Program-made: the position numbers and the translations under genes | The notes under the pieces: generated by a model | What the model was told of the DNA's origin: nothing | What the model saw: the letters and a program-made list of their open reading frames with translations, nothing else | The model's database searches: none | Shown here: one piece after another, positions 2,198 through 19,592 of the stretch | Numbering within the stretch: the first letter of the stretch is position 1 | Layout of the letters: every line of letters begins with the position of its first letter | IMG/VR virus record: IMGVR_UViG_3300046468_002660 | DNA from: a virus | DNA: 64,000 nucleotides | Direction: 5' to 3' (one strand)

Positions 2198-3814
2198 ATG
2201 AAAAAAATAACAATACGCACGGGATCTAACCTAAGCCCTATACTTCAGTCAACTGTTAATATTCCGCAAGCTTTTACAGAACTTGTTAAAAATTCGATTC
2301 AAAATTTATCTACAATAGTAAGTATTGAAATCAAAAATGATACCATTTTGATTGCAGACAACGGTATTGGTTTTAATTATTTAAATGACAGTGATGGCAA
2401 GAATGATTTTGATCGTTATTTTGTTTTTGGGAATTCTTATGATGCAACCCGTGGAGAAGGTTTAAGGTTAGGGCATATGGGTTTAGGTGGAAAATTATCT
2501 AACGACAAATTATCTAAAGCAGGTGCGCCAAATTGGTCTTTGTATACAAAAAATAAAACGGGTGAAGCTTTTATTGTAAACTACAATCCACCTAAATCAG
2601 AATTCTTAGATGATTATTCCCCTGAAATTCAACCTGTTAACTCAAAAGACTCGTTGGTAAACACAACCACAGGAACTACAGTTGTCATTAATGATGTTAA
2701 TGATATTTTTCATAATAACAATCGCTTAATCCATGAAATAAAAGAAGAGTTGAGGAATTTCTTCGGGACTTTAGTTACTTCAATCCATCAAGAAGGAAAA
2801 AATCTTGAAGTTATTTTCAATGGTGAATCTTTAAATTTTGATTATCGTTTACCTGGAATATCTTTCGCTCCTTTGGTGAAAAGTTTTAGTTATGACTATT
2901 ATGGTGAAGAAAAAACATCTGAAATAACTTTTAATTTATCTTATGTAAAGACAAGAGAATTTTTAAAAGACCATCCTGTGCAGAATGTTCAAATAGTTTC
3001 TAATGTAAAAATCAGTGACTTGTATTTATCAAACTCAGATCTTTTAGATCTTTTAACAGAAGATGAAGATGAAAAACTTGAAATTATGAATTTGTTTCAT
3101 AATACGATTGGTTATGTAAGTTGTCCAGATATAAGTTCTGTTTTGGATGATTCAGGAATGCCAGCAAAAGATCTCTCACATCATAGTCTACGTTCGGATC
3201 ATCCGATCACAACCGCTTTCTTGGAAAAAACCTACGAAGTTATCATTGATCTACTTAGAGCTTATAAAAAACTTAAACGAGAAAACGAATTCAAACATTT
3301 TAATAATTTTGTAGGTCAAATTACTGATTTCTTAAAGTCAACAAATATGTTAAGTAAAGATATGCTAGTCACAATCCGTAAACCATCAAAAAACCTTAAC
3401 GATGTAGAGCGTTCAGCGTCTTCGGCTATACGCAATGCTAGAGAATTCAATCCAAAAAACAAAACCCAAAAAGATAGATCTAATTGGGAAACAGAAGTAA
3501 AAGCTAGTGAAAATTATTTAAACCAAGAAGTAATTGATTACAATATTATTGATTTTGGTGAAGGTAACGAAGAAGAAATGTCGAAGCATTTGAATGCTAA
3601 TAATTTTCAAATTTTAATTAATTCTACAAATTATAAATATCAAAAAGTAAACAATTCCAAAAACCCTCTTTTTATAATGCTACATCTTTCTGAATGTTTA
3701 ATTTCGGAAATATGTACTTTTCATAACCCAAGCGTTACAAGAAAAGAAATTGAAAAATGTGTCGCTAACTTTTATAAAAATTATTTTGATGAAATGTTAA
3801 CTTTAGTAAAGTAA
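2198..3814 (+). CDS. GHKL (HATPase_c, MORC/MutL-like) ATPase domain protein
   Basis: ELVKNS, DNGIGF, GHMGLGGK and GTTV boxes. Confidence 0.7.
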   Translation: MKKITIRTGSNLSPILQSTVNIPQAFTELVKNSIQNLSTIVSIEIKNDTILIADNGIGFNYLNDSDGKNDFDRYFVFGNSYDATRGEGLRLGHMGLGGKLSNDKLSKAGAPNWSLYTKNKTGEAFIVNYNPPKSEFLDDYSPEIQPVNSKDSLVNTTTGTTVVINDVNDIFHNNNRLIHEIKEELRNFFGTLVTSIHQEGKNLEVIFNGESLNFDYRLPGISFAPLVKSFSYDYYGEEKTSEITFNLSYVKTREFLKDHPVQNVQIVSNVKISDLYLSNSDLLDLLTEDEDEKLEIMNLFHNTIGYVSCPDISSVLDDSGMPAKDLSHHSLRSDHPITTAFLEKTYEVIIDLLRAYKKLKRENEFKHFNNFVGQITDFLKSTNMLSKDMLVTIRKPSKNLNDVERSASSAIRNAREFNPKNKTQKDRSNWETEVKASENYLNQEVIDYNIIDFGEGNEEEMSKHLNANNFQILINSTNYKYQKVNNSKNPLFIMLHLSECLISEICTFHNPSVTRKEIEKCVANFYKNYFDEMLTLVK

Positions 3815-3881
3815 ATTTTTCTGTGTAATTGACTATAATGAATGATTGATTTTTATTGTTTTATTTTTATTATAATTTTGA

Positions 3882-5168
3882 ATGGAAGATAAAAATATAG
3901 TTTATGTCGGAATGAGTGCCGATTTAATTCATCCTGGTCATATAAACATACTAGAGTCAGCTTCTAAATATGGTTTAGTAACAGTTGGACTTCTAACAGA
4001 TAAAGCTATTGCAAGTTATAAAAGGCTTCCAGCCTTAACTTACGATCAAAGAAAAAGAGTTATCGAAAATTTCAAATTTGTATCTAATGTTATTCCTCAA
4101 ACAACTTTAGATTATAGTGAAAATCTAAATAAAATTCGACCTAAATATGTTGTTCATGGAGATGATTGGCGAACAGGGATTCAAAAAAGTAGTCGCCAAA
4201 AAGTCATTGATTTATTAGATTCTTGGGGTGGCGAATTAATTGAGCTCGAATATACTCCAGGTATCTCTTCAACTCAATTACATCAAAGCGTTCAAGAGGT
4301 TGGGGTTACCCCACAGATTAGACAAGATAAATTAAAAAGATTATTAAAAGCTAAAGATTATGTTCGAGTTATTGAGTCTCATAATGGACTAAGCGGTTTA
4401 ATAGCTGAAAATGTAAACTTTGAAGGTAAAGAATTTGATGCAATCTGGCTTTCTAGCTTAACAGATTCTACAGTTAGAGGAAAACCTGATATAGAGCTGC
4501 TAGATCGATACGGAACTTTAAATGATATTATTGAGGTAACAACTAAACCCATAATTGTAGATGGAGACACTGGAGGAAAAATAGAGCACTTTTCTTTCAC
4601 TGTTAAAACTTTAGAAAGATTAGGGGTTTCCGCTATAATTATTGAAGACAAAATTGGATTGAAAAAAAACTCCTTGCTTGGAACTGAGGTTAAACAAGAG
4701 CAAGATTCAATAGAAAATTTTTGCAGTAAAATTAAAGCGGGGAAACATTCACAACGCTCAGAAAACTTCATGATTATTGCGAGGGTGGAGAGTTTTATTT
4801 TAGGGAAAACAGTGGAAGATGCAATTGATCGTGCAAAAGCTTATATAGAAGCTGGCGCTGACGGAATTATGATTCATAGCAAAGAGTCCAATGGTGAAGA
4901 AATTATTGATTTCTGTAATGAATACAGCCTCCTGAACCAAAGAGTACCACTTGTTGTTGTGCCATCTTCATACAATCATTTCACAGAACAAGAATTGAAT
5001 GATCTTGGGGCAGATGTTATTATTTACGCAAACCATTTACTAAGAAGCGCTTATCCTAGTATGGTTAAAACAGCAGAATCGATACTTAAACACTCTCGCT
5101 CTCTAGAAGCTTCAAATGAGTGCATGTCTATAAAAAATATTTTAAATTTAATTCCAGGAACGAAATGA
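3882..5168 (+). CDS. pepM: Phosphoenolpyruvate mutase fused to an N-terminal cytidylyltransferase
   Basis: HPGH (HxGH) nucleotidyltransferase motif; PEP-mutase-specific EDKx5NS motif ([10 protein letters not shown]); DGDTGG. Confidence 0.93.
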
Positions 5169-5560
5169 AAAATATTTTATTTAATAAATTAATCGAGGAG
5201 GGGTATAATTTTTTTTGTGGAGTTCCAGATAGCGGCTTGAAAGAATTCCAAAATTCGATAATAGAATCTAATTTTAAAAACGTTATTGCTACAAACGAAG
5301 GGCAAGCTATTGGAATTGCTGTGGGAGCGATGATGACTGGCTTAAAACCTTGCGTCTACATGCAAAATTCTGGTTTAGGAAATGCAATTAATCCTTTGAC
5401 AAGTTTATGCGCTCCTTTTAACCTAAATCCTTTGTTAGTCATAGGTCATAGGCATACATTACCTCAACACAAAATAATGGGAAAGGTTGATGAAGATTTG
5501 CTGGATTTAATAGGTTACAAAAATTACCTTTTAATAAAAGGAGATAATAATGAAAAGTAG
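5165..5560 (+). CDS. Phosphonopyruvate decarboxylase, N-terminal (pyrimidine-binding) subunit
   Basis: [30 protein letters not shown]; ATG at 5165 overlaps the pepM stop (ORF track extends to 5120). Confidence 0.85.
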
Positions 5561-6008
5561 AAAAGAAGCTTTATTGGAAATATTTAATTCTCACCCCAAA
5601 AACTCTCTCTTTGTTATTTCTACTGGGTTTTTATGCAGATCTGTCTATAATTTATTCCCTGATAAAAAAAATATTTTTTATATGCAGGGTAGTATGGGTC
5701 TTGCTCCTTGCATTGCTCTTGGTGTTGCCCTTAACACTTCAAAAGATGTTGTAGTTATTAATGGAGATGGAGCGCATTTAATGCACTTAGGTATAACTCA
5801 TACTATTAGAGATGAAAACCTCAAAAATTTATATCACTATATTCTTGACAATGGATCTCATGAATCTGTTGGCGGTTATAAATGCGCATCCTTAGAAAAA
5901 TCTTATTGTGGGGTTAATAAAATATTTAAAATCTCTAAAGATGGCAAATCTTCACGGGTTGGTTTTGATTTTGAAGATAATAAAAACAATTTTGTAGAAT
6001 CGATATGA
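5550..6008 (+). CDS. Phosphonopyruvate decarboxylase, C-terminal TPP-binding subunit
   Basis: GSMG, GDGA..MH.G, DNGSHESVGG; own SD AAGGAG at 5538-5543. Confidence 0.85.
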   Translation: MKSRKEALLEIFNSHPKNSLFVISTGFLCRSVYNLFPDKKNIFYMQGSMGLAPCIALGVALNTSKDVVVINGDGAHLMHLGITHTIRDENLKNLYHYILDNGSHESVGGYKCASLEKSYCGVNKIFKISKDGKSSRVGFDFEDNKNNFVESI

Positions 6009-6763
6009 CAGATTTTTTTGTATGCTCAAAATCTACTAAAAAATATATAAAAGGCGAAAACTATTATTTAGTTACCGCTCCCCCAACTAAAGATATATTA
6101 AAAAAAGCTCAAAAATTCTCTAATGTCATTGCAATTGGTGGTGGAGCCGTAATCGATACAGCTAAAATTTTATCAAAAACCCCAATCACTTGTTACCCGA
6201 CAACAGCTGCTGGAGCCTCAGATACCAGCCACTCTGTTTACTGGGATGGTTCGAATAAAAAAAATTTTAATTCATTTTTACCAAAACAAGTTTTTTTAAA
6301 AAAAGAATATGTAGAAACTCTCCCAAGCCAGTTAGTATTGGAAACTAAAAGTGACTTAATAGCTCATTGTCTTGATGTTATTTGGTCGAAAGATAAAACA
6401 GAAGATAGTGAATTTTTTGCGAAAAAAGGTTTGAGCATAATATCAAAAGACCCCACTAATCTTGCATTAATTAAAGCTGGTCGCTTTGGAGGAAAAGCTA
6501 TAGAGATTACCCCTACCACCATTCTTCACTCTCTGTCTTACCCATTAACAGGTATATATAATATCTCTCACGGTTTAGCTTTATCTTTTCTCATACCAAA
6601 AGTTTCGTCTTTAATGAATTTTGACCCTCCGAATATAAATTACACAAAAAACTTGCCTGGAATAGACTGGGATATTGTTGTCAGAAAAGCAATGCAATAT
6701 CCAAAGTTTCATAATACTCACAAAAAACTTAGTGTTAAAAATTTAACAAGCGCTTTAATTTAG
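6005..6763 (+). CDS. Iron-containing alcohol dehydrogenase, probable phosphonoacetaldehyde reductase (PhpC-like), compact
   Basis: GGGAVIDTAK, PTTAAG, HSLSYPLT..HG; translationally coupled to the decarboxylase. Confidence 0.75.
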   Translation: MTDFFVCSKSTKKYIKGENYYLVTAPPTKDILKKAQKFSNVIAIGGGAVIDTAKILSKTPITCYPTTAAGASDTSHSVYWDGSNKKNFNSFLPKQVFLKKEYVETLPSQLVLETKSDLIAHCLDVIWSKDKTEDSEFFAKKGLSIISKDPTNLALIKAGRFGGKAIEITPTTILHSLSYPLTGIYNISHGLALSFLIPKVSSLMNFDPPNINYTKNLPGIDWDIVVRKAMQYPKFHNTHKKLSVKNLTSALI

Positions 6764-6786: not shown

Positions 6787-7014
6787 ATGGATGATGATTT
6801 TTATATTGGTGGCCCTCGAGATTATGATGAGCAAACAGATGCTTTAAGATTTGATCTTGATGATTTAATAGCTAGATATTTTGAAGAATTTGATCTAAAT
6901 ACTCTTACTATTATTGGAGCTTTGCAAGAAAAAGTTGAAGAATTATGTTCTGGAGGTAATATAGAATTTGAAATGGATGATGATTTTTTTGACGATGAAA
7001 AAGATGAAATTTAA
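6787..7014 (+). CDS. Acidic hypothetical protein
   Basis: Clean ORF between operons. Confidence 0.5.
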   Translation: MDDDFYIGGPRDYDEQTDALRFDLDDLIARYFEEFDLNTLTIIGALQEKVEELCSGGNIEFEMDDDFFDDEKDEI

Positions 7015-7297
7015 GGAATACTATAAACACTATTTAAGCTTACATCAAAACAAAACTTGTATATTATTGCACTACATAGGTCAATGGGCTACAATTGGAG
7101 TTATTTATTTAATTATAAAATATAACTTGTGGTTATTGATACCCATTATACCTTTTGTAGTTTATCCATTTGCTTGGAGCGGACATTATTTTTTTGAAAA
7201 AAATAAACCTGCAGCCTTTAAAAACCCTTGGCTTGCAAAGCTTTCTGACTGGAGAATGTTTTCTGAAATTACCATCGGTAAAATTAAACTTTTTTAA
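6968..7297 (+). CDS. Mpo1-like / DUF962 membrane protein (real start probably 6995 or 7004)
   Basis: YL..H.N..C..LH..G, FAWSGHYFFEKNKPA.F..P. Confidence 0.75.
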   Translation: MKWMMIFLTMKKMKFKEYYKHYLSLHQNKTCILLHYIGQWATIGVIYLIIKYNLWLLIPIIPFVVYPFAWSGHYFFEKNKPAAFKNPWLAKLSDWRMFSEITIGKIKLF

Positions 7298-7358: not shown

Positions 7359-8186
7359 ATGAAAATACTAGTAACAGGACATAAAGGGTATATAGGATCC
7401 CATCTTTATACCGAACTTAAGCAGCGTAAAGATATTACTGAGATTATAGGTGTAGATCTTCAAGATGGAGATGATATTCTTTATTGTTTACCAGATAAAG
7501 ATGTGGATGTTGTATTTCATTTTGCAGCTTTTCCTAGGGTAGAGTACTCTGTTTTAAACCCAAGCTATACCTTTAAACAAAACTGTTTAGTTACTTCTAC
7601 ATTGCTTGATTGGTCTAGAAAACATAATGTCAAAAAATTTATTTTCTCTTCTTCTTCTGCAATTATGGGGGATGGTGACGGAAAACCTAAATCCCCATAT
7701 GGTTTACATAAACTAATTTCTGAGATGGAGTGCAACTTGTATCAAGATCTATACGGAATACAAACGACATGTTTAAGATATTTTAACGCGTATTCGGAAG
7801 ACCAACCTTATGGAGGAGCCTACACAACTGCAATATCAGCATGGATGGAAATGATTCGTCAAAATAAGCCTTTAAGACTTGATGGAGACGGGGAGCAGAC
7901 TAGAGATTTTGTTCACGTTAATGACATTGTCTCAGCAAATATTCTAGCTATGGATCATGACAATATGGATTCTTCCTACTATGATGTTGGATGTGGAGAG
8001 TCTTTTTCGTTAAATTATATTAAAAAATTTATAGATTCTAAAATTGATGTTGAGTGGGATTTTGCTCCACCTCGAAAAGGTGACGCTAGAAACACTTTAG
8101 CTAATATATCACCACTAAAAGATCGTGGCTGGCTCCCTAAAGTTTCTTTTGATGAGGGATTGCAAAAATGTTTCGGCAACTTTTAA
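7359..8186 (+). CDS. NAD-dependent nucleotide-sugar epimerase/dehydratase
   Basis: GHKGYIG, SSSA, YGLHK (YxxxK), RYFN, RDFVHV. Confidence 0.9.
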   Translation: MKILVTGHKGYIGSHLYTELKQRKDITEIIGVDLQDGDDILYCLPDKDVDVVFHFAAFPRVEYSVLNPSYTFKQNCLVTSTLLDWSRKHNVKKFIFSSSSAIMGDGDGKPKSPYGLHKLISEMECNLYQDLYGIQTTCLRYFNAYSEDQPYGGAYTTAISAWMEMIRQNKPLRLDGDGEQTRDFVHVNDIVSANILAMDHDNMDSSYYDVGCGESFSLNYIKKFIDSKIDVEWDFAPPRKGDARNTLANISPLKDRGWLPKVSFDEGLQKCFGNF

Positions 8187-8206: not shown

Positions 8207-8801
8207 GTGAATGATCGATCTTGCATTTATTTTTTATTTTTTCTATTAGTTTTAGTTACATATTTTTTATATGATAAAGTTATAGACAATAATCGATTAT
8301 ATCAAATATGCAAAGATCAAGATGAAACTATACACTTGCAATCAGAAGCTATTGCTAAACAAAATTTGTATATTAATATATTAAACAACTCAAGCAATTA
8401 TAAATCTATATATTCTCCCATTCATTAAAATGACAATTAGAAGTTTAATTTCAGAATGTAATTATAAATACTTTTTTAATGCTATCTACAAGTATTACTT
8501 AAAAGATAATACTCATGATTTTGTGAGAGGGTTTGACACCCTGCTTTTTAATTATTTTAAGTTGACAAGGAACAATAAGTTAATTGAAGATTTGGATCAA
8601 AATTTTCAGCTATACCTTTCAAATCCTTCTGATCAGATTATTGATGTCAGCGTTTTGGATCTTGCTTTAGATGAACTGCAAACGACTGATAAATTCAAAT
8701 TAGATCAAGTCTTAAATTTTGAAATTATTACCTCTGTGCAATTAAACAAACAAGAAATTTTAGCTCATTGTATCTGGGCCTTTAAAAGTGAGCTTGTATA
8801 A
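8207..8801 (+). CDS. Two hypothetical proteins (8207-8428 with TM helix; 8430-8801)
   Basis: Tightly packed ORFs after a GTGTAA motif. Confidence 0.45.
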
Positions 8802-9294
8802 CCTCCCAACTCACATAAAATCTCCACAAATTGTTTATGGTGTTGTGGAAATAGAAGAAGGTCATAAAAACAAGTATGAGTACGACCCTAATTTAGGCGG
8901 TTTTCTTTATGATCGATGTCTTACTTCAGCAATGGTATATCCTGCAAGCTATGGTTTCATACCAAACACTTTATGTGAAGATGGAGATCCCTTAGATATA
9001 TTGATTATCAGTCCAGAACCAATAAAACGGGCCACTATTGTTGAGTCGAAAGTTTTGGGTGTTTTAGATATGGAAGATGAAGGAGATAAAGATTTTAAAA
9101 TCTTGGCTGTTCCTAATTTTTACACTCATAAATATTCTAACTTACAATCCATTGATAAAGCTTTTTTAGAGATATGTAAAAACTTTTTTGCGCATTATAA
9201 AGATTTATCAGCTTCTGGAGATAGGGTAAAAGTTTTTGATTGGCATGACAAAAAACATGCGCAAAACATTATAAAAGAAAGGATTATAAAATGA
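8788..9294 (+). CDS. ppa: Family I inorganic pyrophosphatase
   Basis: KYEYD, YP..YGFIP.T..EDGDPLD, DEGDKDFK. Confidence 0.95.
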   Translation: MSLYNLPTHIKSPQIVYGVVEIEEGHKNKYEYDPNLGGFLYDRCLTSAMVYPASYGFIPNTLCEDGDPLDILIISPEPIKRATIVESKVLGVLDMEDEGDKDFKILAVPNFYTHKYSNLQSIDKAFLEICKNFFAHYKDLSASGDRVKVFDWHDKKHAQNIIKERIIK

Positions 9295-9630: not shown

Positions 9631-10398
9631 TTGCAGAAAGAAAGTTTTAAAAATTTAGTAAAACAAAGAATTATGACAAACGATAATCCTTCATCACTCA
9701 AAAATATTTTTTGTGTATCGTACGGTCATGAAGTGAGTATTAAATTCGACACTTCTCCAGAATTTGATTTGGTGGTTCTTAATTATAGCGATGAAGGGTC
9801 AGAAAATAAATTTCCTCATGATTGCACTCATGAGATGCACGTTAAGACAGAATGTAAAGGCGATCTAATGTTGTTGGCATTAAATTTTGTAAACTTAAAT
9901 TATAAAGATTACTCTAGAGTATGTGTGTTTGATGATGATATTACAATAACAATTTCACAGATCAATCAATTATTCGCAATAGCAGAACAGCACTCGCTCG
10001 ATCAATTTGCTCCATCATTATCACGAGACAGTGTCTTTACTCATGCACACACGTTGTGTCACAACAAGGGTGTGCGGAAAGTGCAATGGGTGGAAGTTAT
10101 GATGCCTGGTTTCAGCAAAAGATTTGTTGACCAGATGTTACCATTGTATAATGACTTATATGATACACACAACTTAAAAAGTTCATGGGGGCTGGATACT
10201 CATGTATTCCCAGCAGTCAATAGCAGCATCAATGGCGGTTGTGCGATTATAGATGACATAATTGTGAAGCATCATAGAGCAATACGTAGTCAAGATATAC
10301 AGTTTTCTAATGGTCGATACGCCTCTCAAGAAGCGGCGATAATATGGAGCAAAATAAATGAATTTTCAAAGAAACACCTTTTTCAAAAACATGATTAA
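9631..10398 (+). CDS. DUF707-like putative glycosyltransferase
   Basis: FDDDI, VEVMMP.FS, SWGLD motifs. Confidence 0.6.
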   Translation: MQKESFKNLVKQRIMTNDNPSSLKNIFCVSYGHEVSIKFDTSPEFDLVVLNYSDEGSENKFPHDCTHEMHVKTECKGDLMLLALNFVNLNYKDYSRVCVFDDDITITISQINQLFAIAEQHSLDQFAPSLSRDSVFTHAHTLCHNKGVRKVQWVEVMMPGFSKRFVDQMLPLYNDLYDTHNLKSSWGLDTHVFPAVNSSINGGCAIIDDIIVKHHRAIRSQDIQFSNGRYASQEAAIIWSKINEFSKKHLFQKHD

Positions 10399-11116
10399 CA
10401 ACTTTTTTAATAAAATTTTTGTGATTAATCTTCAGAGATGTTCTGATCGAAAAAATCACGTTGAGAAAATAATGTCTGAACAAAATGTTGACTTTGATTT
10501 TGTGGAAGCTGTTGATGGAGAAGCTGAATTTAAAGATCACGAATATTATGTCGATTTTTTAAAAAAAAATTGTTATAACTGCAACAACTGGAACCAAAGC
10601 AAAGCTCAACTTGGTTGTTGGTTAAGTCATATAAAAATTTGGGAAAAAATTGTAGCAGAAAACATTGAATCTTGTTTAATTTTAGAAGATGATTTTCTTT
10701 TTAATAAAAACGCAAGTGTTGAAGAAACATTAAAAGATCTACCTAAAGACTGGAACATCTTTATGGCTGGTTATGGTAGCGCTCAGATTTCAGATGTGAT
10801 AAATGACAATATTGTTAGGCTTACCACTCCTTCTTGCACTCATGCTTATGCTTTAAAATATGAAGCTGCAAAAATTATTTTAGATAATTGCTATCCATTA
10901 ATGGGAGCTTTAGATAGTTTCACTGGGCATATATTTTTTACTAGAGACAATAATAAAATCTTTAAAAATGGTTTTGAAACTAGGTGTAATTTTACCGCAG
11001 AAGAAATGCAAAAAAGAAACCCTAAATATAGTCTAAATTCTTTGGATAATCTATTTAGTTACGCACCAAAAGAACCTCTTTTTACCCAAGGAGGTTCTAA
11101 TTACTCTACAATTTAA
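10391..11116 (+). CDS. Glycosyltransferase family 25
   Basis: INL.R..DR, AVDG, GCWLSH, ILEDD, THAY. Confidence 0.85.
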   Translation: MINNFFNKIFVINLQRCSDRKNHVEKIMSEQNVDFDFVEAVDGEAEFKDHEYYVDFLKKNCYNCNNWNQSKAQLGCWLSHIKIWEKIVAENIESCLILEDDFLFNKNASVEETLKDLPKDWNIFMAGYGSAQISDVINDNIVRLTTPSCTHAYALKYEAAKIILDNCYPLMGALDSFTGHIFFTRDNNKIFKNGFETRCNFTAEEMQKRNPKYSLNSLDNLFSYAPKEPLFTQGGSNYSTI

Positions 11117-11120
11117 TTCT

Positions 11121-12119
11121 ATGAATTATTTAATTAACTTTGCTCATGGCACTTACTTAGGAGCTCAAAAACAAAACTCTAAGACAGGGATAGAATCTGG
11201 ATGTTTCGATGCTGTTATTCAATATAAATATAAAGACATTGAAGAAAGTTTTGAAGTTGAAAATTCGGAAATTTTAAATGGCGGTAATAGCAAGGGTGCT
11301 GGTTTTTGGCTCTGGAAACCTTATTTTTTACTTAAAACTTTAAAATCCGTCAATGAAGGAGATATAATTTTTTATTCTGACTCTGGAGCCTCCTTTGTGA
11401 GAGATGTTAAACCCTTGATAAATGAAGTTAAAAATTCCCCCCAAGGTCTCGCTTGTTTTCATTTAGGTGGAGATCATAAAGAAGGTCTTTGGACTCAAAA
11501 AACTACGCTTTATGGAATGGAGATGGATACTGAAGAAATAAGAAGTTCAACTCAAATAATGGCGAGTTTTGTCGTTGCAAAAAAATGCGCAAGTGCAATA
11601 TCTATTATTGAAGATTGGTTATCTTTTTGCAAAAAACCTGAGCTTATACGTGATAATAAAAATCTTGGTAAAAACTATCCTGGATTCAGATCTCATAGAC
11701 ATGATCAATCAATTTGGAGTTTAATTTGCAAAAAGCATAAAGTTAAGATTCTTCCCGATCCAACTCATTGGGGATTACATTATAATGGAGATCGCAAAGA
11801 CTTTTTTATATTTCATCATCGCCAAGATCCTCCACCAAAAGAAATTCCTTTGGATTTAATCAATATCGCAAATAATTTCAATAAAATAGATTTAAAAAAT
11901 CATCCAGCTCTAGGAACTTGGAATTATCACAATGTTTTTTATCGTGATGTCTCTGAAGACGGTTCTGTTGTACTTAGGAAAAATGACGATATTATATGGA
12001 CTAAAAATTGCATTTCTAAAACTAAAGATTCTTTTTTATTGGAAGACGATCTTTTTCATCAATTTGTTGATGGAAGTTTAAACATAGAGGGCAAATACAA
12101 AGGAGCAAGAGTTCAATGA
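11121..12119 (+). CDS. Putative glycosyltransferase-like protein
   Basis: GAGFWLWKP, YSDSG, HRHDQSIWSL motifs typical of viral glycan loci. Confidence 0.55.
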   Translation: MNYLINFAHGTYLGAQKQNSKTGIESGCFDAVIQYKYKDIEESFEVENSEILNGGNSKGAGFWLWKPYFLLKTLKSVNEGDIIFYSDSGASFVRDVKPLINEVKNSPQGLACFHLGGDHKEGLWTQKTTLYGMEMDTEEIRSSTQIMASFVVAKKCASAISIIEDWLSFCKKPELIRDNKNLGKNYPGFRSHRHDQSIWSLICKKHKVKILPDPTHWGLHYNGDRKDFFIFHHRQDPPPKEIPLDLINIANNFNKIDLKNHPALGTWNYHNVFYRDVSEDGSVVLRKNDDIIWTKNCISKTKDSFLLEDDLFHQFVDGSLNIEGKYKGARVQ

Positions 12120-13069
12120 ATTTTGAATTTAAAAAATTAGATTATAAAAATCTTTTAAATAAGTATTCTATTGAAATAGCTAGCAATGAACCCTCAGAAA
12201 GAGAGTTTGCCTATGCTAAAGTTTCTTTTAATCAACTTTCTGAAATTGATTACTCTATTGTGATGCCAGTGTTCAATCAAGAAGATTTAATTAAAAAACA
12301 TATAGAATCTATATTAAAATATACTAAAGACAATTATGAACTAATTTTAATATTGGATTTTTGTGTAGACAACACAGAAAAAGAAATTTTAAATTTTTTC
12401 TCGAACTACGCTAATAGTTACAATAATTTAGAATCTGTTACTATTGTTAAGCACTGTAAATTTCCAATTTTCGAAGCTTCTTGTGATAACGTTGGCTTTA
12501 TGCTTGCTAAAGGAAAATTCCTACTAGAAATACAATCAGATATGGAAATGACTGAAAGTGGTTATAATTTACAATTAAAAAGACCTTTTGATCATTTTGA
12601 TAACTGTATAGGTGTTTCTGGAAGATGCACGGCTAACTTTTCTAAAAGTTGGCTTACTGGTTCCAAATGTCACAGCACCTTAACTAAAGTATCTGACACT
12701 GGTACTAGTAGAGATATTTTTTATCAACATGATACTTGCTGTCGAGGTCCATTATTACTAGATAGAGAAAAATCTGCAAGCTTATCTTTTTTAAATGAAA
12801 AAGATTTTCATCTAGACGATGCTGATCATCACTTTTTCGCAAGAGCTTCAGCTGAAAACTATATATGTGGATACATGGCAATTGATTTTTATTCTAATCT
12901 AAACATGGGATCTTCAAGAAAGAGGGGTAAATTACCTCGTGATTCATATTTAATAAATGAAGAATACCTACATTTAAGACAGCAAAACTATAGTGTTAAT
13001 TTTTATGATGGCACTAACTTTATACAAATGCCAAATGTCATTAAACACGAACTTATAAAAAATAATTAA
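12116..13069 (+). CDS. Glycosyltransferase family 2
   Basis: SIVMPVFNQE, ELILILD.C.D.T. Confidence 0.75.
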   Translation: MNFEFKKLDYKNLLNKYSIEIASNEPSEREFAYAKVSFNQLSEIDYSIVMPVFNQEDLIKKHIESILKYTKDNYELILILDFCVDNTEKEILNFFSNYANSYNNLESVTIVKHCKFPIFEASCDNVGFMLAKGKFLLEIQSDMEMTESGYNLQLKRPFDHFDNCIGVSGRCTANFSKSWLTGSKCHSTLTKVSDTGTSRDIFYQHDTCCRGPLLLDREKSASLSFLNEKDFHLDDADHHFFARASAENYICGYMAIDFYSNLNMGSSRKRGKLPRDSYLINEEYLHLRQQNYSVNFYDGTNFIQMPNVIKHELIKNN

Positions 13070-15364: not shown

Positions 15365-16143
15365 ACAACTTTATAGAAATTAATAAATTCTCACATCTTC
15401 ATGACGGCGATAAAGTTTTCTTTTGTAAAACTGATTTTTTGAACAACCAATTTCGTGAAATTTCTAAACTAAAACATGACGTTCTTTTAATTTCTGGGAA
15501 TTCAGATTATTGTATTACTGACAATCATATTAAAGAGCTGCCAAGTAACGTTAAGTTTTGGTTTGCTCACAACTGCTTGGTTGATGATGACAGAGTTCAT
15601 CCACTTCCAATGGGTATAGAAAATCAATCAGAGTCAGCCTTGGGTGCAAGACATGGAGTATCTTGGGGAGGGAGAAAACGAGACATCTTATTATCTAACA
15701 TAAAACAAAAACCTCCTACAAAATTTGCTTATTCAAATTTTCGAATTTGGACAAACTCTGAACATAGATCCTTAATTCGTGATATCAGCATTGAAGCTGA
15801 TTATATTGACTGGGAAAATCCATCTCTTACAAATGAAGGCTTTTATAATAAATGTTTAGATTACGAATTAGTTGTTTGTGCTCAGGGTAATGGCCCAGGA
15901 GATAATCATAGAATCTATGAAACTCTTTATCTTGAAAGAATTCCTATTACTTTTAATCAGTGTATGTACAAAAAATTGCATCATAACTTTCCTGTTATTT
16001 GCCTAGATGATCCCAATAAATTAAAAGATAAAAAATTTTTAGATGAAGAGCTAAAGAAAATAAAATCGAAAACATTTAATAGGAACATGTTACACCCAGA
16101 ATGGTGGATTAACGAAATAAAAAATAAAATAGAATTATTATGA
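15361..16143 (+). CDS. Exostosin/GT47-like protein
   Basis: GNG..D.HRIYETLYL..IP motif. Confidence 0.6.
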   Translation: MNNFIEINKFSHLHDGDKVFFCKTDFLNNQFREISKLKHDVLLISGNSDYCITDNHIKELPSNVKFWFAHNCLVDDDRVHPLPMGIENQSESALGARHGVSWGGRKRDILLSNIKQKPPTKFAYSNFRIWTNSEHRSLIRDISIEADYIDWENPSLTNEGFYNKCLDYELVVCAQGNGPGDNHRIYETLYLERIPITFNQCMYKKLHHNFPVICLDDPNKLKDKKFLDEELKKIKSKTFNRNMLHPEWWINEIKNKIELL

Positions 16144-16556
16144 AATCAATCAATGATGTTAAACAAGGTAAAAATGTAAAAATTAGTGACTTTACAAATC
16201 TTTATGGCTGTGAATTGGAGGATGATGTTTTCGTCGGTCCCTTTGTTGAAATACAGTCTAACGTAAAAATCGGAAAATCAACAAGAGTTTCATCACATTC
16301 TTTTATTTGCTCGAATGTAAATGTAGGCAAAAATTGCTTCATAGCGCATGGAGTTATGTTTACAAATGATAAATTTACAGAAAACAAAAGTGAGTGGATA
16401 GAAAGACCGACCCAAATTGGAAATAATGTCAGAATTGGATCTAATGCAACTATATTACCAGTGACTATTGGAGATAATGTTATTATTGGTGCAGGAGCTG
16501 TTGTTACAAAAGATGTTCCTAGTAACTCTGTAGTGAAAGGTAATCCAGCAAAATGA
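16140..16556 (+). CDS. Hexapeptide-repeat sugar N-acetyltransferase (WbpD/WlbB-like)
   Basis: Left-handed beta-helix repeats, FTND, GAGAVVTKDVP, GNPA. Confidence 0.85.
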   Translation: MKSINDVKQGKNVKISDFTNLYGCELEDDVFVGPFVEIQSNVKIGKSTRVSSHSFICSNVNVGKNCFIAHGVMFTNDKFTENKSEWIERPTQIGNNVRIGSNATILPVTIGDNVIIGAGAVVTKDVPSNSVVKGNPAK

Positions 16557-17434
16557 ATCTTAAAATAGGTATAGTTGGTCTTGGTTATTGGGGAAAAATA
16601 ATTTTAAAAAACTTAAAAGGTTTAGGGTATAAAAATATAAAAGTATATGAACCAAATAAAATTAATTGGGGAGATATAGGCTTTAAGGTTCCCACGGCAG
16701 AAAGTATGGAGGATTTGCTTGATAGAGATAAAATCTTTGTTGTAACTCCGACTAATACTCATTCTTTAGTTTGTAATTTTTTTATTAAGCATGGTGTAGA
16801 TATTTTTTGCGAAAAACCTTTAACAAATGATTTAAGCGCGACTCTAGATTTGTACAAAAACATTAACGAAAACTCTTCAAAACTTTTTGTTGACTGGCTT
16901 TTTACTTTTAACCCTGCTGTCAAAAAAATAAAGGAAATCATTCAATCGAAAGGAGCTCCCAAAACAATTATTTCAAATCGCTTGAATTATGGACCTCAAA
17001 GATTTGATGTCGATGCGAGGCTAGACTTATCATCGCACGATGTTTCTATAATGTTGCATTGGCTTGAAGTTTTTCCAACTACAATAAACTGGGTTGACTT
17101 TAAAAGAAATAAGTCCTCTGTCACCAATGATAGCAATATTGGAGTTCTTTCATTCGACAAGGGGGACAACACCACATCAGTTCAAATTAATTCTAGTTGG
17201 GAATTTGGAGAAAAAAATAGGGATGTTATAATTGAATTTTACGATGGCGAATTTTTAAAATGGAATGATTTCTCTGGATTGCTTACCTTAAATGGCTCAA
17301 ACATATCTTTTGAAAATTACTCCCCTTTAGAAAAAAGTATTTCTACTTTTTTAGAAAACAAATTTGATCAAGAAAAAAACAAGCTGTTAACTATAAATAT
17401 TAATAAAATTTTGCAAAATGAAGATACAATTTAA
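16553..17434 (+). CDS. Gfo/Idh/MocA oxidoreductase (WbpB/WlbA-like)
   Basis: GLGYWG, CEKP, DL..HD. Confidence 0.8.
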   Translation: MNLKIGIVGLGYWGKIILKNLKGLGYKNIKVYEPNKINWGDIGFKVPTAESMEDLLDRDKIFVVTPTNTHSLVCNFFIKHGVDIFCEKPLTNDLSATLDLYKNINENSSKLFVDWLFTFNPAVKKIKEIIQSKGAPKTIISNRLNYGPQRFDVDARLDLSSHDVSIMLHWLEVFPTTINWVDFKRNKSSVTNDSNIGVLSFDKGDNTTSVQINSSWEFGEKNRDVIIEFYDGEFLKWNDFSGLLTLNGSNISFENYSPLEKSISTFLENKFDQEKNKLLTININKILQNEDTI

Positions 17435-18524
17435 CGACCTTAATGCTCAGTGGCAAATAATCAAAAAAAATACGCTTAAAGAGTTTGAAAAACTTTTTAA
17501 AAAGTCTAATTTTATTTTAGGGGATCAAGTCAAAACTTTTGAAGATAATTTCTCTAAATACATCAACTCAAAATACTCTGTTGGCGTTTCAAATGGAACA
17601 GATGCATTAAAATTGTCAACTCAGGCTCTTGACCTTCAAGGTTCTATATGTTTTATATTGCCAGCAAATACATATGTTGCAACAATCCTCGGTCCTGAGC
17701 AAGCTTACCCAAATGCACATTTTGAAATTGTTGACTGCGATAATTTTCATCAAATTGACACAAAAAAGACAGAAAACTTTTTAAAGAAAAATTCTTCCCG
17801 CTTTGACAGTATTGTGTTAATTCCTGTTCACCTTTATGGATATTCTTGCGACATGGATGAATTAATGAGAATAAAAAAGCAATACAATTGCTACATGATT
17901 GAAGATTCTTCTCAAGCTCATGGAGCACAATGGAAAGGCAAGACGGTAGGGACTTTTGGTGATGTCTCAGCTTTTTCCTTATACCCTGGGAAAAATTTAG
18001 GTGCGGCTGGAGACGCGGGTGTAATATCTACGAACAACAAACAAATTTACGATAAATTATTAAAGCTTAGAGGTTTAGGTTCAGTTAAAAAATATATTCA
18101 TGACATGAAAGGTGGTAATCATCGTTTAGACACTCTTCAAGCAATTATTTTAAATGAAAAAATTAAATTTATTGAAGATTGGAATGAATCGAGAAGAAGA
18201 GTGGTTAAATTTTTTGAGTCGAAAATATCAAATCCAAAGATAAAACTGCCAAAAACTCAAAACTATTGCTTGCCTGTTCATCATATCTACCCAGTTTTAG
18301 TAGATAATAGAGATGATTTTACAAATTTTTTAGATAAACATTCTATCCAGTGGGGTATACATTACCCAATATGTATAGAAGATATGTGCATGTATAAAAA
18401 TTTAGTCCCCAAGCCAAATGTTAAGGCATTATCTTTTAGCAAACGGATGGTAAGCCTGCCAATACATCCTTTTTTAAACGAGCAACAGCTTGACTATTTA
18501 GTTGAAATTTTAAATATTTATTAA
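17418..18524 (+). CDS. DegT/DnrJ/EryC1/StrS sugar aminotransferase (WbpE/WlbC-like)
   Basis: NGTDAL, VHLYG, EDSSQAHG, SLYPGKNLG.GDAG. Confidence 0.92.
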   Translation: MKIQFNDLNAQWQIIKKNTLKEFEKLFKKSNFILGDQVKTFEDNFSKYINSKYSVGVSNGTDALKLSTQALDLQGSICFILPANTYVATILGPEQAYPNAHFEIVDCDNFHQIDTKKTENFLKKNSSRFDSIVLIPVHLYGYSCDMDELMRIKKQYNCYMIEDSSQAHGAQWKGKTVGTFGDVSAFSLYPGKNLGAAGDAGVISTNNKQIYDKLLKLRGLGSVKKYIHDMKGGNHRLDTLQAIILNEKIKFIEDWNESRRRVVKFFESKISNPKIKLPKTQNYCLPVHHIYPVLVDNRDDFTNFLDKHSIQWGIHYPICIEDMCMYKNLVPKPNVKALSFSKRMVSLPIHPFLNEQQLDYLVEILNIY

Positions 18525-18599: not shown

Positions 18600-19592
18600 A
18601 TGAGCGAAAGCATTCGAGAAAAAAATAAAAAAATAATCAAAAATATGCTTTTTTGGTTACATCAAGTTTGCTTAAAGCATAATTTAAGATATATGGCGAA
18701 AGGTGGAACATTAATTGGAGCGGTAAGACATAAAGGAGTAATTCCTTGGGATGGAGATGGTGACGTTTTTATGCCTATTGATGATTGGCTAAAACTCCAT
18801 AAACTTATTACTGAAATTGAAGACCCTTATTTCTTAAATTCAGATGGGTCATGGACTTCGGCAAGAACTCCAACTTGGGGAAGTTTAAGCTCTGGTCACC
18901 CACAAAAAGGAGTTGTTAAAAAGTTCAACATGCCGAATGATCTTTTTTTTCAATGTGCTGCAACCGATTATCATATGGCAGGTAGAATTATTAAAATAAG
19001 GTCAAAAGAACTCTATAATACCCCCGCCTCAACCTGGGGACCATCTCACGCAGGTGTGCAGTTAGATATATTCCCAATAACAATTCAACACGATCACATC
19101 TTAATAGATTATGAAGAAACCCCAACTGGTCATTATCATTGGCAACCTCTAAGCGAAGTATTTCCTTTAGTTACATTGCCGTTTGAAGATAGAGAAATTT
19201 TTTGCGCAAAAAACCATTTATCTAGATTAAAAGATTCTTACGGAGCAGAAATTCCCCCATTCCCCGAAAACTATAGACATCTTTTAGGGGATGGTTGGTC
19301 TCATGAAGGTCCAGTTGCAGAAATAAAATCACGCCCATTAAATTATTATCTTGAACATTTTCCTCATTTTTACAATGAAGATATGTCTTTAAAAGATTCT
19401 ACTATTTCTGGAAACCCAGAGTCTGTTGAAGAATTTCTTTCAAAGAATACATTAAAAGCTGCAACTCCAGACACTTACGTTCCTCAAAACACTAAACCAA
19501 GAAAAGGGACGGACCCTTTTTGGAAATTATTTTCTCAACACGAAAAAACAAAAGGTAAAGAATTTGTTCAAACTCGCCCTCCTAAACTTTAA
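18600..19592 (+). CDS. LicD-family phospho-substituent transferase
   Basis: GTLIGAVRHKGVIPWD.DGD, QLDIFP. Confidence 0.85.
   Translation: MSESIREKNKKIIKNMLFWLHQVCLKHNLRYMAKGGTLIGAVRHKGVIPWDGDGDVFMPIDDWLKLHKLITEIEDPYFLNSDGSWTSARTPTWGSLSSGHPQKGVVKKFNMPNDLFFQCAATDYHMAGRIIKIRSKELYNTPASTWGPSHAGVQLDIFPITIQHDHILIDYEETPTGHYHWQPLSEVFPLVTLPFEDREIFCAKNHLSRLKDSYGAEIPPFPENYRHLLGDGWSHEGPVAEIKSRPLNYYLEHFPHFYNEDMSLKDSTISGNPESVEEFLSKNTLKAATPDTYVPQNTKPRKGTDPFWKLFSQHEKTKGKEFVQTRPPKL

Follow-up and report, generated by a model that had tools for sequence, protein, structure and literature searches.

The window, a 64,000-nucleotide stretch of DNA from an uncultured virus, carries on its plus strand, at positions 3882-6763, four translationally coupled genes that overlap, in order, by 4, 11 and 4 nt, an arrangement that agrees in coordinates with the four overlapping phosphonate genes of the original prediction. 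Comparison with a related phage (L122) places all four under purifying selection (dN/dS 0.06-0.09; 0.073, 0.089, 0.059 and 0.067 in gene order), indicating that their function has been retained. Between 44 and 59 nt upstream of the cassette lies a GTGTAA-N5-TATAA element (3823-3838, plus strand). The pattern GTGTAANNNNNTWTAR occurs four times in the window against 0.17 expected, a count in which the fourth site alone is independent, the pattern having been derived from the other three, and all four sites are on the plus strand upstream of genes (2198, the cassette, 13906 and rIIA). By itself, TGTGTAAT is not enriched in the window (6 found, 3.4 expected), and a sigma-70 scan returned 119 sites where 91 are expected, which in DNA of 31% GC is uninformative. 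The element may conceivably be a phage-specific regulatory or promoter-like motif.

The first gene (3882-5168, plus strand) encodes a Fom1-type bifunctional protein of 428 aa, with a cytidylyltransferase (CyTase) domain at residues ~4-140 and a PEP mutase (PepM) domain at residues ~150-428, where Pfam places PF01467 (residues 12-133, 45.9 bits) and PF13714 (residues 151-402). The PepM domain scores 386.3 bits against the PEP_mutase equivalog TIGR02320, above its cut-off of 319.55, while the next families, phosphonopyruvate hydrolase and methylisocitrate lyase, fall far under theirs. It contains the EDKX5NS motif that separates Ppm from other members of the isocitrate-lyase superfamily, here E255-D-K-I-G-L-K-K-N-S264, and residues 144-414 match the PepM structure 5UNC (E 1.4e-43), with the DGDTG, ARVES and IHSK blocks aligned. 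The CyTase domain (residues 4-140) matches PDB 5X3D, the CyTase of Fom1, at E 2.6e-60 and with ~66% identity (91 of 137 aligned positions, counted by hand), and possesses the Fom1-type motifs HPGH (H17-P-G-H20) and TPGISST (T125-P-G-I-S-S-T131).

Phosphonopyruvate decarboxylase (Ppd), the next enzyme, is divided between two genes. The first encodes an N-terminal, PYR-domain subunit, PpdN (5165-5560, plus strand; PF02776), of 131 aa when counted from the ATG of the gene caller, with an alternative GTG start at 5120; the gene overlaps the pepM stop codon. The second encodes a C-terminal, PP-domain subunit, PpdC (5550-6008, plus strand; PF02775), of 152 aa. For each half the best NCBIfam match is to the Ppd model TIGR03297, over model positions 2-123 for PpdN (116.2 bits, against 77 bits for sulfopyruvate decarboxylase alpha) and 172-296 for PpdC (110.6 bits, against 83 bits for ComD/ComE). 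Both scores lie below the cut-off of 312.5 bits set for the one-polypeptide equivalog, and model positions 124-171 and ~297-360 are uncovered; judged by score, the pair is a variant Ppd architecture and not a canonical member. The ThDP-enzyme features, a catalytic glutamate in the PYR domain and the Mg/ThDP motif GDG-X(24-27)-N(N) in the PP domain, are present as the conserved catalytic Glu45 within TNEGQA of PpdN and as G72-D-G, X25, D100-N101 of PpdC. A similar division of a ThDP enzyme is known from the two-subunit sulfopyruvate decarboxylase ComD/ComE, in which the PYR and PP domains likewise reside on separate alpha and beta polypeptides, and whose models are the second-best NCBIfam matches for both halves. 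Unlike ComD/ComE, however, PpdN and PpdC sit between PepM and a phosphonate-type alcohol dehydrogenase (ADH), and they group with Ppd over sulfopyruvate decarboxylase. In a tree of Ppd sequences the split forms branch within Ppd as one lineage, a grouping that shared deletions could inflate. A sulfopyruvate/isethionate reading of the split decarboxylase and ADH was rejected, given the presence of PepM and the higher scores of the Ppd and phosphonate-ADH models.

The fourth gene (6005-6763, plus strand) encodes a compact group-III iron alcohol dehydrogenase of 252 aa, a predicted HEP-forming phosphonoacetaldehyde reductase (HEP, 2-hydroxyethylphosphonate). Its Fe-ADH Pfam matches are weak, and the best NCBIfam match, to the phosphonate-associated Fe-ADH model TIGR03405, reaches 69.1 bits over model positions 127-284 (next family, 36 bits), as against an equivalog cut-off of 423.7 bits and a full length of ~355-390 aa. 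The protein nonetheless has the Fe-ADH fold: its AlphaFold model (pLDDT 94.8) finds the Fe-ADH 1O2D as its top Foldseek match (E 1.7e-15, TM(query) 0.80), and 52 homologues share invariant residues G45-G-G47, D51, K54, D117, H121, H175 and H189, among which are those of a GGGS-type dinucleotide loop and the Asp/His/His/His metal ligands. The compact family numbers 334 members, all of ~250-270 aa. Because the ~120 residues by which the enzyme is shorter than a normal Fe-ADH include part of the nucleotide-binding domain, its cofactor use is uncertain. The original prediction had named a cytidylyltransferase-PEP mutase with EDKx5NS, two TPP decarboxylase halves and an Fe-ADH, and all of these identities hold, the last on its best-scoring family, metal site and fold; the shortness of the ADH had gone unnoted.

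Taken together, the four genes suggest a pathway in which each activity is assigned from sequence. The PepM domain is predicted to convert PEP to phosphonopyruvate, and a two-subunit ThDP decarboxylase formed by PpdN and PpdC would decarboxylate this product to phosphonoacetaldehyde, pulling the unfavourable PepM step forward. The miniaturised ADH would then reduce phosphonoacetaldehyde to HEP, which the Fom1-type CyTase domain would join with CTP to give CMP-HEP. The gene identities support this order of reactions, which had been proposed for the locus at the outset, and homology favours HEP over other phosphonates as the predicted product. A catabolic reading, in which HEP would be oxidized to scavenge phosphorus, was rejected, as there is no phosphonatase and a biosynthetic PepM/Ppd pair is present.

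Because PF01467 domains fused to Ppm are found in AEP-type neighbourhoods too (PMC8942020), the CyTase fold alone leaves the substrate unfixed, and HEP is put forward as substrate from the identity to Fom1 together with the co-conserved ADH. The CyTase might instead activate AEP made by a host or unseen transaminase, another product derived from phosphonoacetaldehyde, or a HEP derivative made by an Mpo1-like protein of the Fe(II)-dioxygenase family. Besides the AEP-type fusions, this alternative draws on the score of the short ADH, far under the PhpC/PsrA equivalog cut-off, and on the Mpo1-like gene that follows the ADH (6977-7297, plus strand; PF06127, 94.5 bits), which is strongly constrained (dN/dS 0.03 against L122) and is found close to the cassette in three further viral contigs (L013, L015 and L016). 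The Mpo1-like gene is missing, however, from most cassette carriers, whereas virtually all copies, viral and cellular, have the ADH next to Ppd, and the CyTase domain resembles the single enzyme for which cytidylylation of HEP has been demonstrated (PMC6697681). As the original prediction had stated for the AEP transaminase, the scanned ORFs of positions 1-22.7 kb include no class-V (PhnW-type) aminotransferase, their sole aminotransferase being a DegT-family enzyme at 17418, and the scanned window ORFs likewise lack an MpnS/HEPD-sized cupin and PhnY. These searches belong to a genome of ~160 kb of which the 64-kb window and a further ~18 kb are covered, and an AEP transaminase or HEP-modifying enzyme could lie elsewhere. 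On balance, a phosphonate other than HEP is an unlikely substrate.

The window is part of an uncultured tailed phage of ~160 kb. It encodes rIIA (6.4e-92), rIIB (1.9e-57), a clamp loader and a helicase, and a T4-type terminase starts 6.9 kb beyond its end (PF03237, 38.5 bits; PHROG_2, 1.6e-22) on contig L124, which overlaps the window end exactly and also gives a weak portal match; the viral origin that the original prediction had asked to see established is thus confirmed. The capsid and tail ORFs beyond the window are too divergent to match PHROGs, and no PHROG family matches the PepM domain, either Ppd half, the ADH, or the Mpo1-like, LicD and pyrophosphatase proteins of the region. rIIA is at most 27% identical to that of any cultured phage, too distant for a lineage or host to be assigned. 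An SD-like motif precedes 14 of 75 ORFs, and the two tRNAs are not diagnostic of host; the names of the samples that yielded relatives hint at a marine origin. No isolated phage in INPHARED was found to carry the CyTase-PepM fusion, the matches there being two unannotated 6-8-kb gut 'Bacteriophage sp.' fragments (~50% identity) and one PEP-mutase-annotated gene of a Vibrio phage (29% identity over half the length).

Residence in a phage has to be weighed against the possibility that the island comes from a host genome, through chimeric assembly or through the mis-binning of a bacterial surface-glycan island as viral, in which case it would be silent on viruses. The CyTase-PepM/Ppd/Fe-ADH order is indeed common as a module in bacteria and archaea (70 of the 80 nearest GTDB loci have it), and PepM is 60-69% identical to cellular homologues. 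Yet at least six independent assemblies (ENA, JGI and Logan) share identical flanks and junctions, a diverged syntenic related phage also carries the cassette, GC is uniform at 0.30-0.33, and the cassette is flanked on either side by phage genes of the same strand, with the terminase downstream. The structure of the cassette itself separates viral from cellular copies: the split Ppd with short ADH is found in 20 of 21 IMG/VR contigs and in none of the 80 nearest cellular loci, all of which possess a single Ppd of ~375 aa and an ADH of ~345-400 aa. A host origin, including the mis-assembled host fragment that the original prediction had named as its refutation, is already largely refuted and has next to no probability.

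Among viral loci, Ppd is encoded as polypeptides of ~129 and ~155 aa and the ADH as one of 207-270 aa, mostly 252-270. Identity to the window proteins is 57-71% for PpdN, 56-66% for PpdC and 42-49% for the ADH in most of these loci (34-45% in two divergent ones), as compared to bacterial maxima of 48%, 50% and 35%, respectively. The carriers include a 293-kb contig and a complete 189-kb genome with direct terminal repeats, in which Gp23 and Terminase_6N were not matched and the sheath match is weak. The IMG/VR carriers were considered as kin of the present phage and this was rejected, since the terminase of the window phage finds nothing convincing in ten of them; by this comparison of terminase sequences the ten are different phages. 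The PepM phylogeny that the original prediction had proposed was built and does not resolve a single viral origin: the tree needs five label changes, of which at least two are forced, and places the window only weakly beside L001 and a gammaproteobacterium. What is new here is a compact cassette of predicted HEP synthesis, with split Ppd and short ADH, that is recurrent and apparently virus-associated. The original prediction had not recognised this distinct miniature form associated with viruses.

Downstream of the cassette, on the same strand, are genes for sugar-nucleotide and glycan synthesis. An NAD-dependent nucleotide-sugar epimerase/dehydratase (7359-8186; PF01370, 1.3e-46; PHROG 540) is followed by an inorganic pyrophosphatase (8788-9294; PF00719, 1.4e-45), which would pull the reaction of CTP and HEP toward CMP-HEP and PPi, and by glycosyltransferases between 10358 and 13069 of families GT25 (10358-11116; PF01755) and GT2 (12116-13069; PF00535), with an unannotated 332-aa ORF between them. 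A Wbp-like trio of hexapeptide acyltransferase, Gfo/Idh/MocA oxidoreductase and DegT aminotransferase (16140-18524; PF00132, PF01408 and PF01041) probably serves synthesis of an acetamido-sugar donor. Next is a LicD-family phosphotransferase (18600-19592; PF04991, 91.3 bits against a cut-off of 22.6), a candidate CMP-HEP:glycan HEP transferase. In the present phage LicD is 12 kb away from the cassette; in the 76% relative the LicD gene directly adjoins the CyTase-PepM start, in the order pyrophosphatase-epimerase-LicD-cassette, with the pyrophosphatase three genes upstream of the cassette. This linkage supports LicD as a candidate enzyme taking CMP-HEP as donor, and elsewhere among viral lineages the gene adjoining the cassette encodes a TagF-like CDP-alcohol phosphotransferase. 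Unannotated ORFs of 380-408 aa also travel with it.

The association of LicD or TagF-like phosphotransferases, pyrophosphatase and glycosyltransferases with the cassette supports transfer of HEP onto a glycan built by the phage. In the last step of the proposed pathway, the LicD-family transferase would attach HEP through a phosphonate ester to the glycan that the glycosyltransferases and sugar-modifying enzymes encoded downstream by the phage would produce; the gene context suggests both this role of LicD and a glycan acceptor. We know of no LicD for which phosphonate transfer has been biochemically demonstrated. In bacteria, LicD-like transferases accompany cytidylyl-activated phosphonates (PMC6697681), and HEP is present on exopolysaccharide and on polysaccharide of marine dissolved organic matter (PMC8942020). 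No exporter, priming transferase or acceptor was identified. The host cell surface and virion proteins are roughly even as destinations of the glycan. The original prediction had also allowed for modification of DNA, and here its proposals part: the link to glycan decoration is strengthened by these neighbouring genes, and a use of the product on DNA is unlikely.

Among the closest known systems is the early part of fosfomycin synthesis in Streptomyces wedmorensis, where Fom1, Fom2 and FomC provide the same three activities along the same lines: an N-terminal PF01467 CyTase and PepM in one fused protein, followed by Ppd and Fe-ADH, yielding the HEP and CMP-HEP that are predicted for the phage. 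This homology to the first fosfomycin steps (PMC6697681), and the ability of CMP-activated phosphonates to feed lipid synthesis, leave some room for CMP-HEP as an intermediate to a small-molecule phosphonate, such as a fosfomycin-like inhibitor, or to a phosphonolipid head group, rather than to glycan decoration. The phage cassette differs, however, in having none of the Fom3/Fom4 tailoring, and neither a B12 radical-SAM methyltransferase (Fom3), nor an HppE-type epoxidase, nor a CDP-alcohol phosphatidyltransferase was found among the scanned ORFs; in place of an antibiotic cluster, it is surrounded by genes for glycosyltransferases, sugar-nucleotide enzymes and LicD or TagF-like transferases, both here and in unrelated viral lineages. 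A small-molecule or lipid end product is accordingly very unlikely. Further differences from the Fom system are the two Ppd ORFs, the shortened ADH and the phage location.

Gene order, fusion and glycan-gene neighbourhood are shared with bacterial and archaeal cell-surface HEP cassettes (CyTase-Ppm, Ppd and a PhpC-like Fe-ADH), from which the phage form differs in its split Ppd and short ADH; these belong to the HEP branch described by Li & Horsman (2022), with the HEP-exopolysaccharide of Stackebrandtia (PMC8942020). The same work reports a giant-virus (NCLDV) MAG that encodes an AEP pathway, with a Ppm-Ppd fusion and AEP transaminase, on a single eukaryotic-virus contig; in its purpose-made survey, Ppm was absent from RefSeq viruses and 364 huge phages, and this lone case came as a surprise (Li & Horsman 2022, PMC8942020). 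As in the phage, a virus-borne Ppm-Ppd core stands beside amino-sugar genes and was read as making a viral phosphonoglycan; in contrast, the present carrier is a bacteriophage, the branch is that of HEP, and the cassette is recurrent. The searchable literature contains no report of a phage PepM, and the viral phosphonate pathway reported there is this one AEP case. Cytidylylation followed by LicD-like transfer, as proposed for the phage, parallels the PntC/LicD scheme of Rice et al. (2019, PMC6697681), in which a phosphonate is cytidylylated and then passed by a LicD-like phosphotransferase to surface glycans. The PntC enzymes characterised so far belong to PF12804 and are specific for AEP, whereas the activating domain of the phage is PF01467, with HEP as its predicted substrate.

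The identities of the four genes, their conserved catalytic motifs, the purifying selection on them, their residence in a phage and their recurrence are matters of observation, and we regard it as probable that positions 3882-6763 constitute a functional phage-resident cassette leading from PEP to HEP and CMP-HEP, with HEP then passed to a glycan. A broader reading, which is tentative, is of one virus-adapted miniature HEP cassette among unrelated large phages, such that phage-infected cells are an uncounted source of the HEP-esterified polysaccharide in marine high-molecular-weight dissolved organic phosphorus, the glycan may coat the virion by O-glycosylation of Thr/Pro-rich tails of structural proteins, and the 380-408-aa ORFs and Mpo1-like protein could be new enzymes of phosphonate transfer or tailoring.

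Phosphonates account for a large part of the dissolved organic phosphorus in the sea, a pool in which polysaccharide-bound esters of HEP and methylphosphonate are a recognised component, and the known producers, among them SAR11, Prochlorococcus and Thaumarchaeota, are cellular. Virocells now join the list of candidate producers, and some phosphonate-bearing polysaccharide may come from infected cells, a source that would have been overlooked. The split Ppd and short ADH could serve as marker genes to tell viral from cellular phosphonate synthesis in metagenomes and metatranscriptomes, and offer biochemistry minimal versions of two enzymes, while LicD, the TagF-like proteins and the unannotated neighbours are genetic candidates for the uncharacterised transfer of a cytidylyl-activated phosphonate onto glycan. 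If the phosphonoglycan is indeed carried on the virion, this would be the first virus particle decorated with phosphonate.

The four genes of the original prediction were recovered at its positions, all on the plus strand, and are translationally coupled, consecutive genes overlapping by 4, 11 and 4 nt. The first (3882-5168) encodes a 428-residue fusion of a cytidylyltransferase domain (CyTase; PF01467, residues 12-133) to PEP mutase (PepM; PF13714, residues 151-402), which scores above the PEP-mutase equivalog cut-off (TIGR02320, 386.3 bits versus 319.55) and carries both the Ppm-specific motif E255-D-K-IGLKK-N-S264 and the nucleotidyltransferase motifs HPGH (17-20) and TPGISST (125-131). Over residues 4-140 the protein matches a crystallised cytidylyltransferase domain, that of Fom1 (5X3D, E 2.6e-60), with 91 of 137 aligned positions identical by our count, and residues 144-414 align with the PepM structures 5UNC and 1M1B. 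Phosphonopyruvate decarboxylase (Ppd) is split into a PYR half, PpdN (131 aa, 5165-5560, plus strand), and a PP half, PpdC (152 aa, 5550-6008, plus strand), both of which match TIGR03297 best (116 and 111 bits), ahead of the two sulfopyruvate decarboxylase subunits as second-best models. Residues typical of ThDP enzymes are retained, namely the catalytic glutamate E45 in PpdN and GDG-X25-DN in PpdC. Measured against the related phage L122 (dS 0.37-0.98), dN/dS is 0.073 for CyTase-PepM, 0.089 for PpdN, 0.059 for PpdC and 0.067 for the fourth gene.

That fourth gene (6005-6763, plus strand) encodes an iron alcohol dehydrogenase (Fe-ADH) of only 252 aa, which scores highest against the phosphonate-associated family TIGR03405, though its 69 bits fall far short of the cut-off. 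Its own family comprises 334 clusters, every one of about 250-270 aa, and the dinucleotide loop (G45-G-G47, D51, K54) and four metal ligands (D117, H121, H175, H189) are invariant among 52 aligned members. An AlphaFold model (pLDDT 94.8, pTM 0.91) is placed by Foldseek onto Fe-ADHs, including 1O2D (E 1.7e-15; TM 0.80 by query, 0.58 by target). Uniform family length, invariant loop and ligands, and a confident fold rule out a gene fragment; with the Foldseek match, they argue for a trimmed yet complete two-domain Fe-ADH.

The viral origin of the stretch, also predicted, is borne out by several lines of evidence. Phage genes in the window include rIIA (6.4e-92), rIIB (1.9e-57), a clamp loader, helicase and endonuclease, as well as a sigma-factor-like protein, HNH endonucleases, a Holliday-junction resolvase and two tRNAs. 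A contig that matches the final 300 nt of the window exactly (L124) continues into PhoH and then a large terminase beginning 6.9 kb beyond the window end (PF03237, 38.5 bits, cut-off 22; PHROG_2, 1.6e-22), followed by a weak portal match. Six assemblies from three sources carry PepM with identical flanking genes, and in L122, whose PepM is 93% identical, the cassette lies at the same place amid phage genes; GC is flat at 0.30-0.33 over the island and its flanks. A close cultured phage was not found, rIIA being at most 27% identical to any. Only 14 of 75 plus-strand window ORFs have GGAG, GAGG or AGGA at -20 to -5 (background 7%), and such sparse motifs hint that Shine-Dalgarno use is weak in the host.

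Full CyTase-PepM relatives (52-71% identity) occur in 21 IMG/VR contigs, 20 of which carry the compact cassette, as does a 293-kb metagenome contig whose gene content is phage-like. In this viral form the Ppd halves are about 114-141 and 152-169 aa long and the ADH ranges from 207 to 270 aa (252-270 in most), whereas the compact form is absent from all 80 cellular loci with the best PepM matches (GTDB species representatives of many phyla, PepM 60-69% identical). There Ppd is without exception a single ORF of about 345-430 aa or fused to the ADH, which is itself about 345-400 aa. Most viral copies are 57-71%, 56-66% and 42-49% identical to the window's PpdN, PpdC and ADH, against best bacterial values of 48%, 50% and 35%; two divergent viral loci are at 34-45%. 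In an exhaustive HMMER search with PpdN every match to E 1e-25 was a short protein (91-141 aa), and forms of about 375 aa appeared from E 1e-22. In the Ppd tree one branch (SH-aLRT 93) separates the 16 distinct split sequences from all others, and 14 of them, the window's included, fall in a 99% clade. The picture from PepM is less sharp: 12 viral sequences form one strongly supported clade and the window is placed elsewhere with weak support. The cassette is apparently of single origin. Its carriers span more than one phage lineage: one has a T4-type Gp23 and another a Terminase_6N, one 189-kb genome is complete and has direct terminal repeats, and a search of ten carriers for the window's terminase gave nothing convincing. 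In some cellular cassettes, apparent fusion of Ppd to ADH or enlargement of the ADH is a trend opposite to the viral split; Ppd and Fe-ADH appear fused in one ORF of about 700 aa in Gammaproteobacteria bacterium Psp_hYS2021, and the ADH ORF appears enlarged (667-887 aa) at two other cellular loci (L041, L097).

LicD enzymes move a phospho-alcohol from a CDP-alcohol donor. A LicD-family gene lies downstream of the cassette (18600-19592, plus strand), beyond a plus-strand series of Mpo1-like, epimerase, inorganic pyrophosphatase (PPase), GT25, GT2 and methyltransferase-like genes and an acetyltransferase/Gfo-oxidoreductase/DegT trio. Linkage is tighter in a relative at 76% (PPase-epimerase-LicD-CyTase/PepM-PpdN-PpdC-ADH), while a TagF-like CDP-glycerol-type phosphotransferase (PF04464) lies directly 5' of the cassette in the 189-kb virus and the 293-kb contig, amid GDP-mannose dehydratase, epimerase, DegT and GT2 genes. 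Two distinct CDP-alcohol phosphotransferase families therefore accompany the same cassette, and this is the best evidence supporting CMP-HEP (cytidylyl-activated 2-hydroxyethylphosphonate, HEP) as a putative donor for glycan decoration, unlike the transient intermediate of fosfomycin synthesis. The predicted glycan decoration gains support from these phosphotransferases and the glycosyltransferase genes near the cassette. LicD-like genes alongside cytidylyl-activated phosphonate pathways were described by Rice et al. (PMC6697681), and HEP is documented on exopolysaccharide and on marine DOM polysaccharide (PMC8942020). Among the ORFs scanned there were no Fom3/HppE-type, MpnS/HEPD-type or CDP-alcohol phosphatidyltransferase genes and no PhnW-type AEP transaminase; the window holds no exporter or priming enzyme. 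Because a 179-aa structural-region protein (L124:19811-20350) ends in INTPPTPT, virion O-glycosylation is in play, with Thr/Pro tails as possible sites. A 354-aa NAD-dependent epimerase/dehydratase (L124:14007-15071) sits inside the structural module, between putative portal and head genes. An ORF at 25039-25704 matches a PHROG annotated as galactose-3-O-sulfotransferase (4.1e-11), a hint that sulfation, too, may occur on the phage glycan.

Several accessory ORFs adjoin the cassette. The Mpo1-like gene 3' of the ADH (6977-7297, plus strand; PF06127, an Fe(II)-dependent 2-hydroxy-acid dioxygenase family) encodes a small protein under strong constraint (dN/dS 0.03; L122:8408-8704), turns up close to the cassette in three further viral contigs (L013:5296-5574, L015:6809-7090, L016:39-329) and had no tblastn match among the 80 bacterial loci; a role as a phosphonate-tailoring or membrane partner is possible. 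Members of the main viral clade have an ORF of 379-408 aa that overlaps the CyTase-PepM start (L005:8812-9999, L007:8769-9995, L009:8869-10008, L011:8848-9999, L012:8827-9987, L014:8850-9995), occupying the slot that in other carriers holds a TagF-like or LicD gene. The three of these six that were scanned gave no Pfam match. The ORF is a candidate gene for a new CMP-phosphonate transferase. In another viral carrier (L020) the overlapping slot holds a sulfatase/alkaline-phosphatase-superfamily gene.

Upstream, a 538-aa protein (2198-3814) has a weak N-terminal HATPase_c_3 match and no NCBIfam or PHROG family. A strong terminator (2156-2176) and a GTGTAA motif lie 5' of its gene, which L122 lacks at this position: there the cassette comes straight after the 87-aa ORF. 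The gene has the look of a recent insertion (moron) beside the cassette. The pattern GTGTAA-N5-T(A/T)TA(A/G) occurs at four window sites (2183, 3823, 13891, 48764) versus 0.17 expected, a count in which only one site is independent, the pattern having been derived from the other three. All lie on the plus strand upstream of genes, including rIIA; that at 3823 precedes by 15 nt a mini-ORF of three codons (ATG AAT GAT TGA, 3838) ahead of pepM. The element could be a phage promoter or translation signal.

The chemistry is common to Fom1/Fom2/FomC, and so not new, and to the widespread cell-surface HEP cassette, from which the phage form differs in carrier and architecture. A search by Li and Horsman detected no Ppm among RefSeq viruses and 364 huge phages, and their highlight was a single NCLDV contig encoding an AEP pathway (PMC8942020); Acker et al. 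and Lockwood et al. reported no viral pepM, and the viral phosphonate genes of AMG papers are for degradation, pepM not among them. No earlier report of a phage pepM was found in open-access papers and bioRxiv. We infer the enzyme activities, product, transferase, acceptor and ecological weight of the cassette. Overall, the predicted observation is confirmed and its interpretation supported, that of a phage-borne, miniaturised HEP/CMP-HEP cassette linked with glycan synthesis by the phage, in which carrier and architecture are new and the pathway is known.
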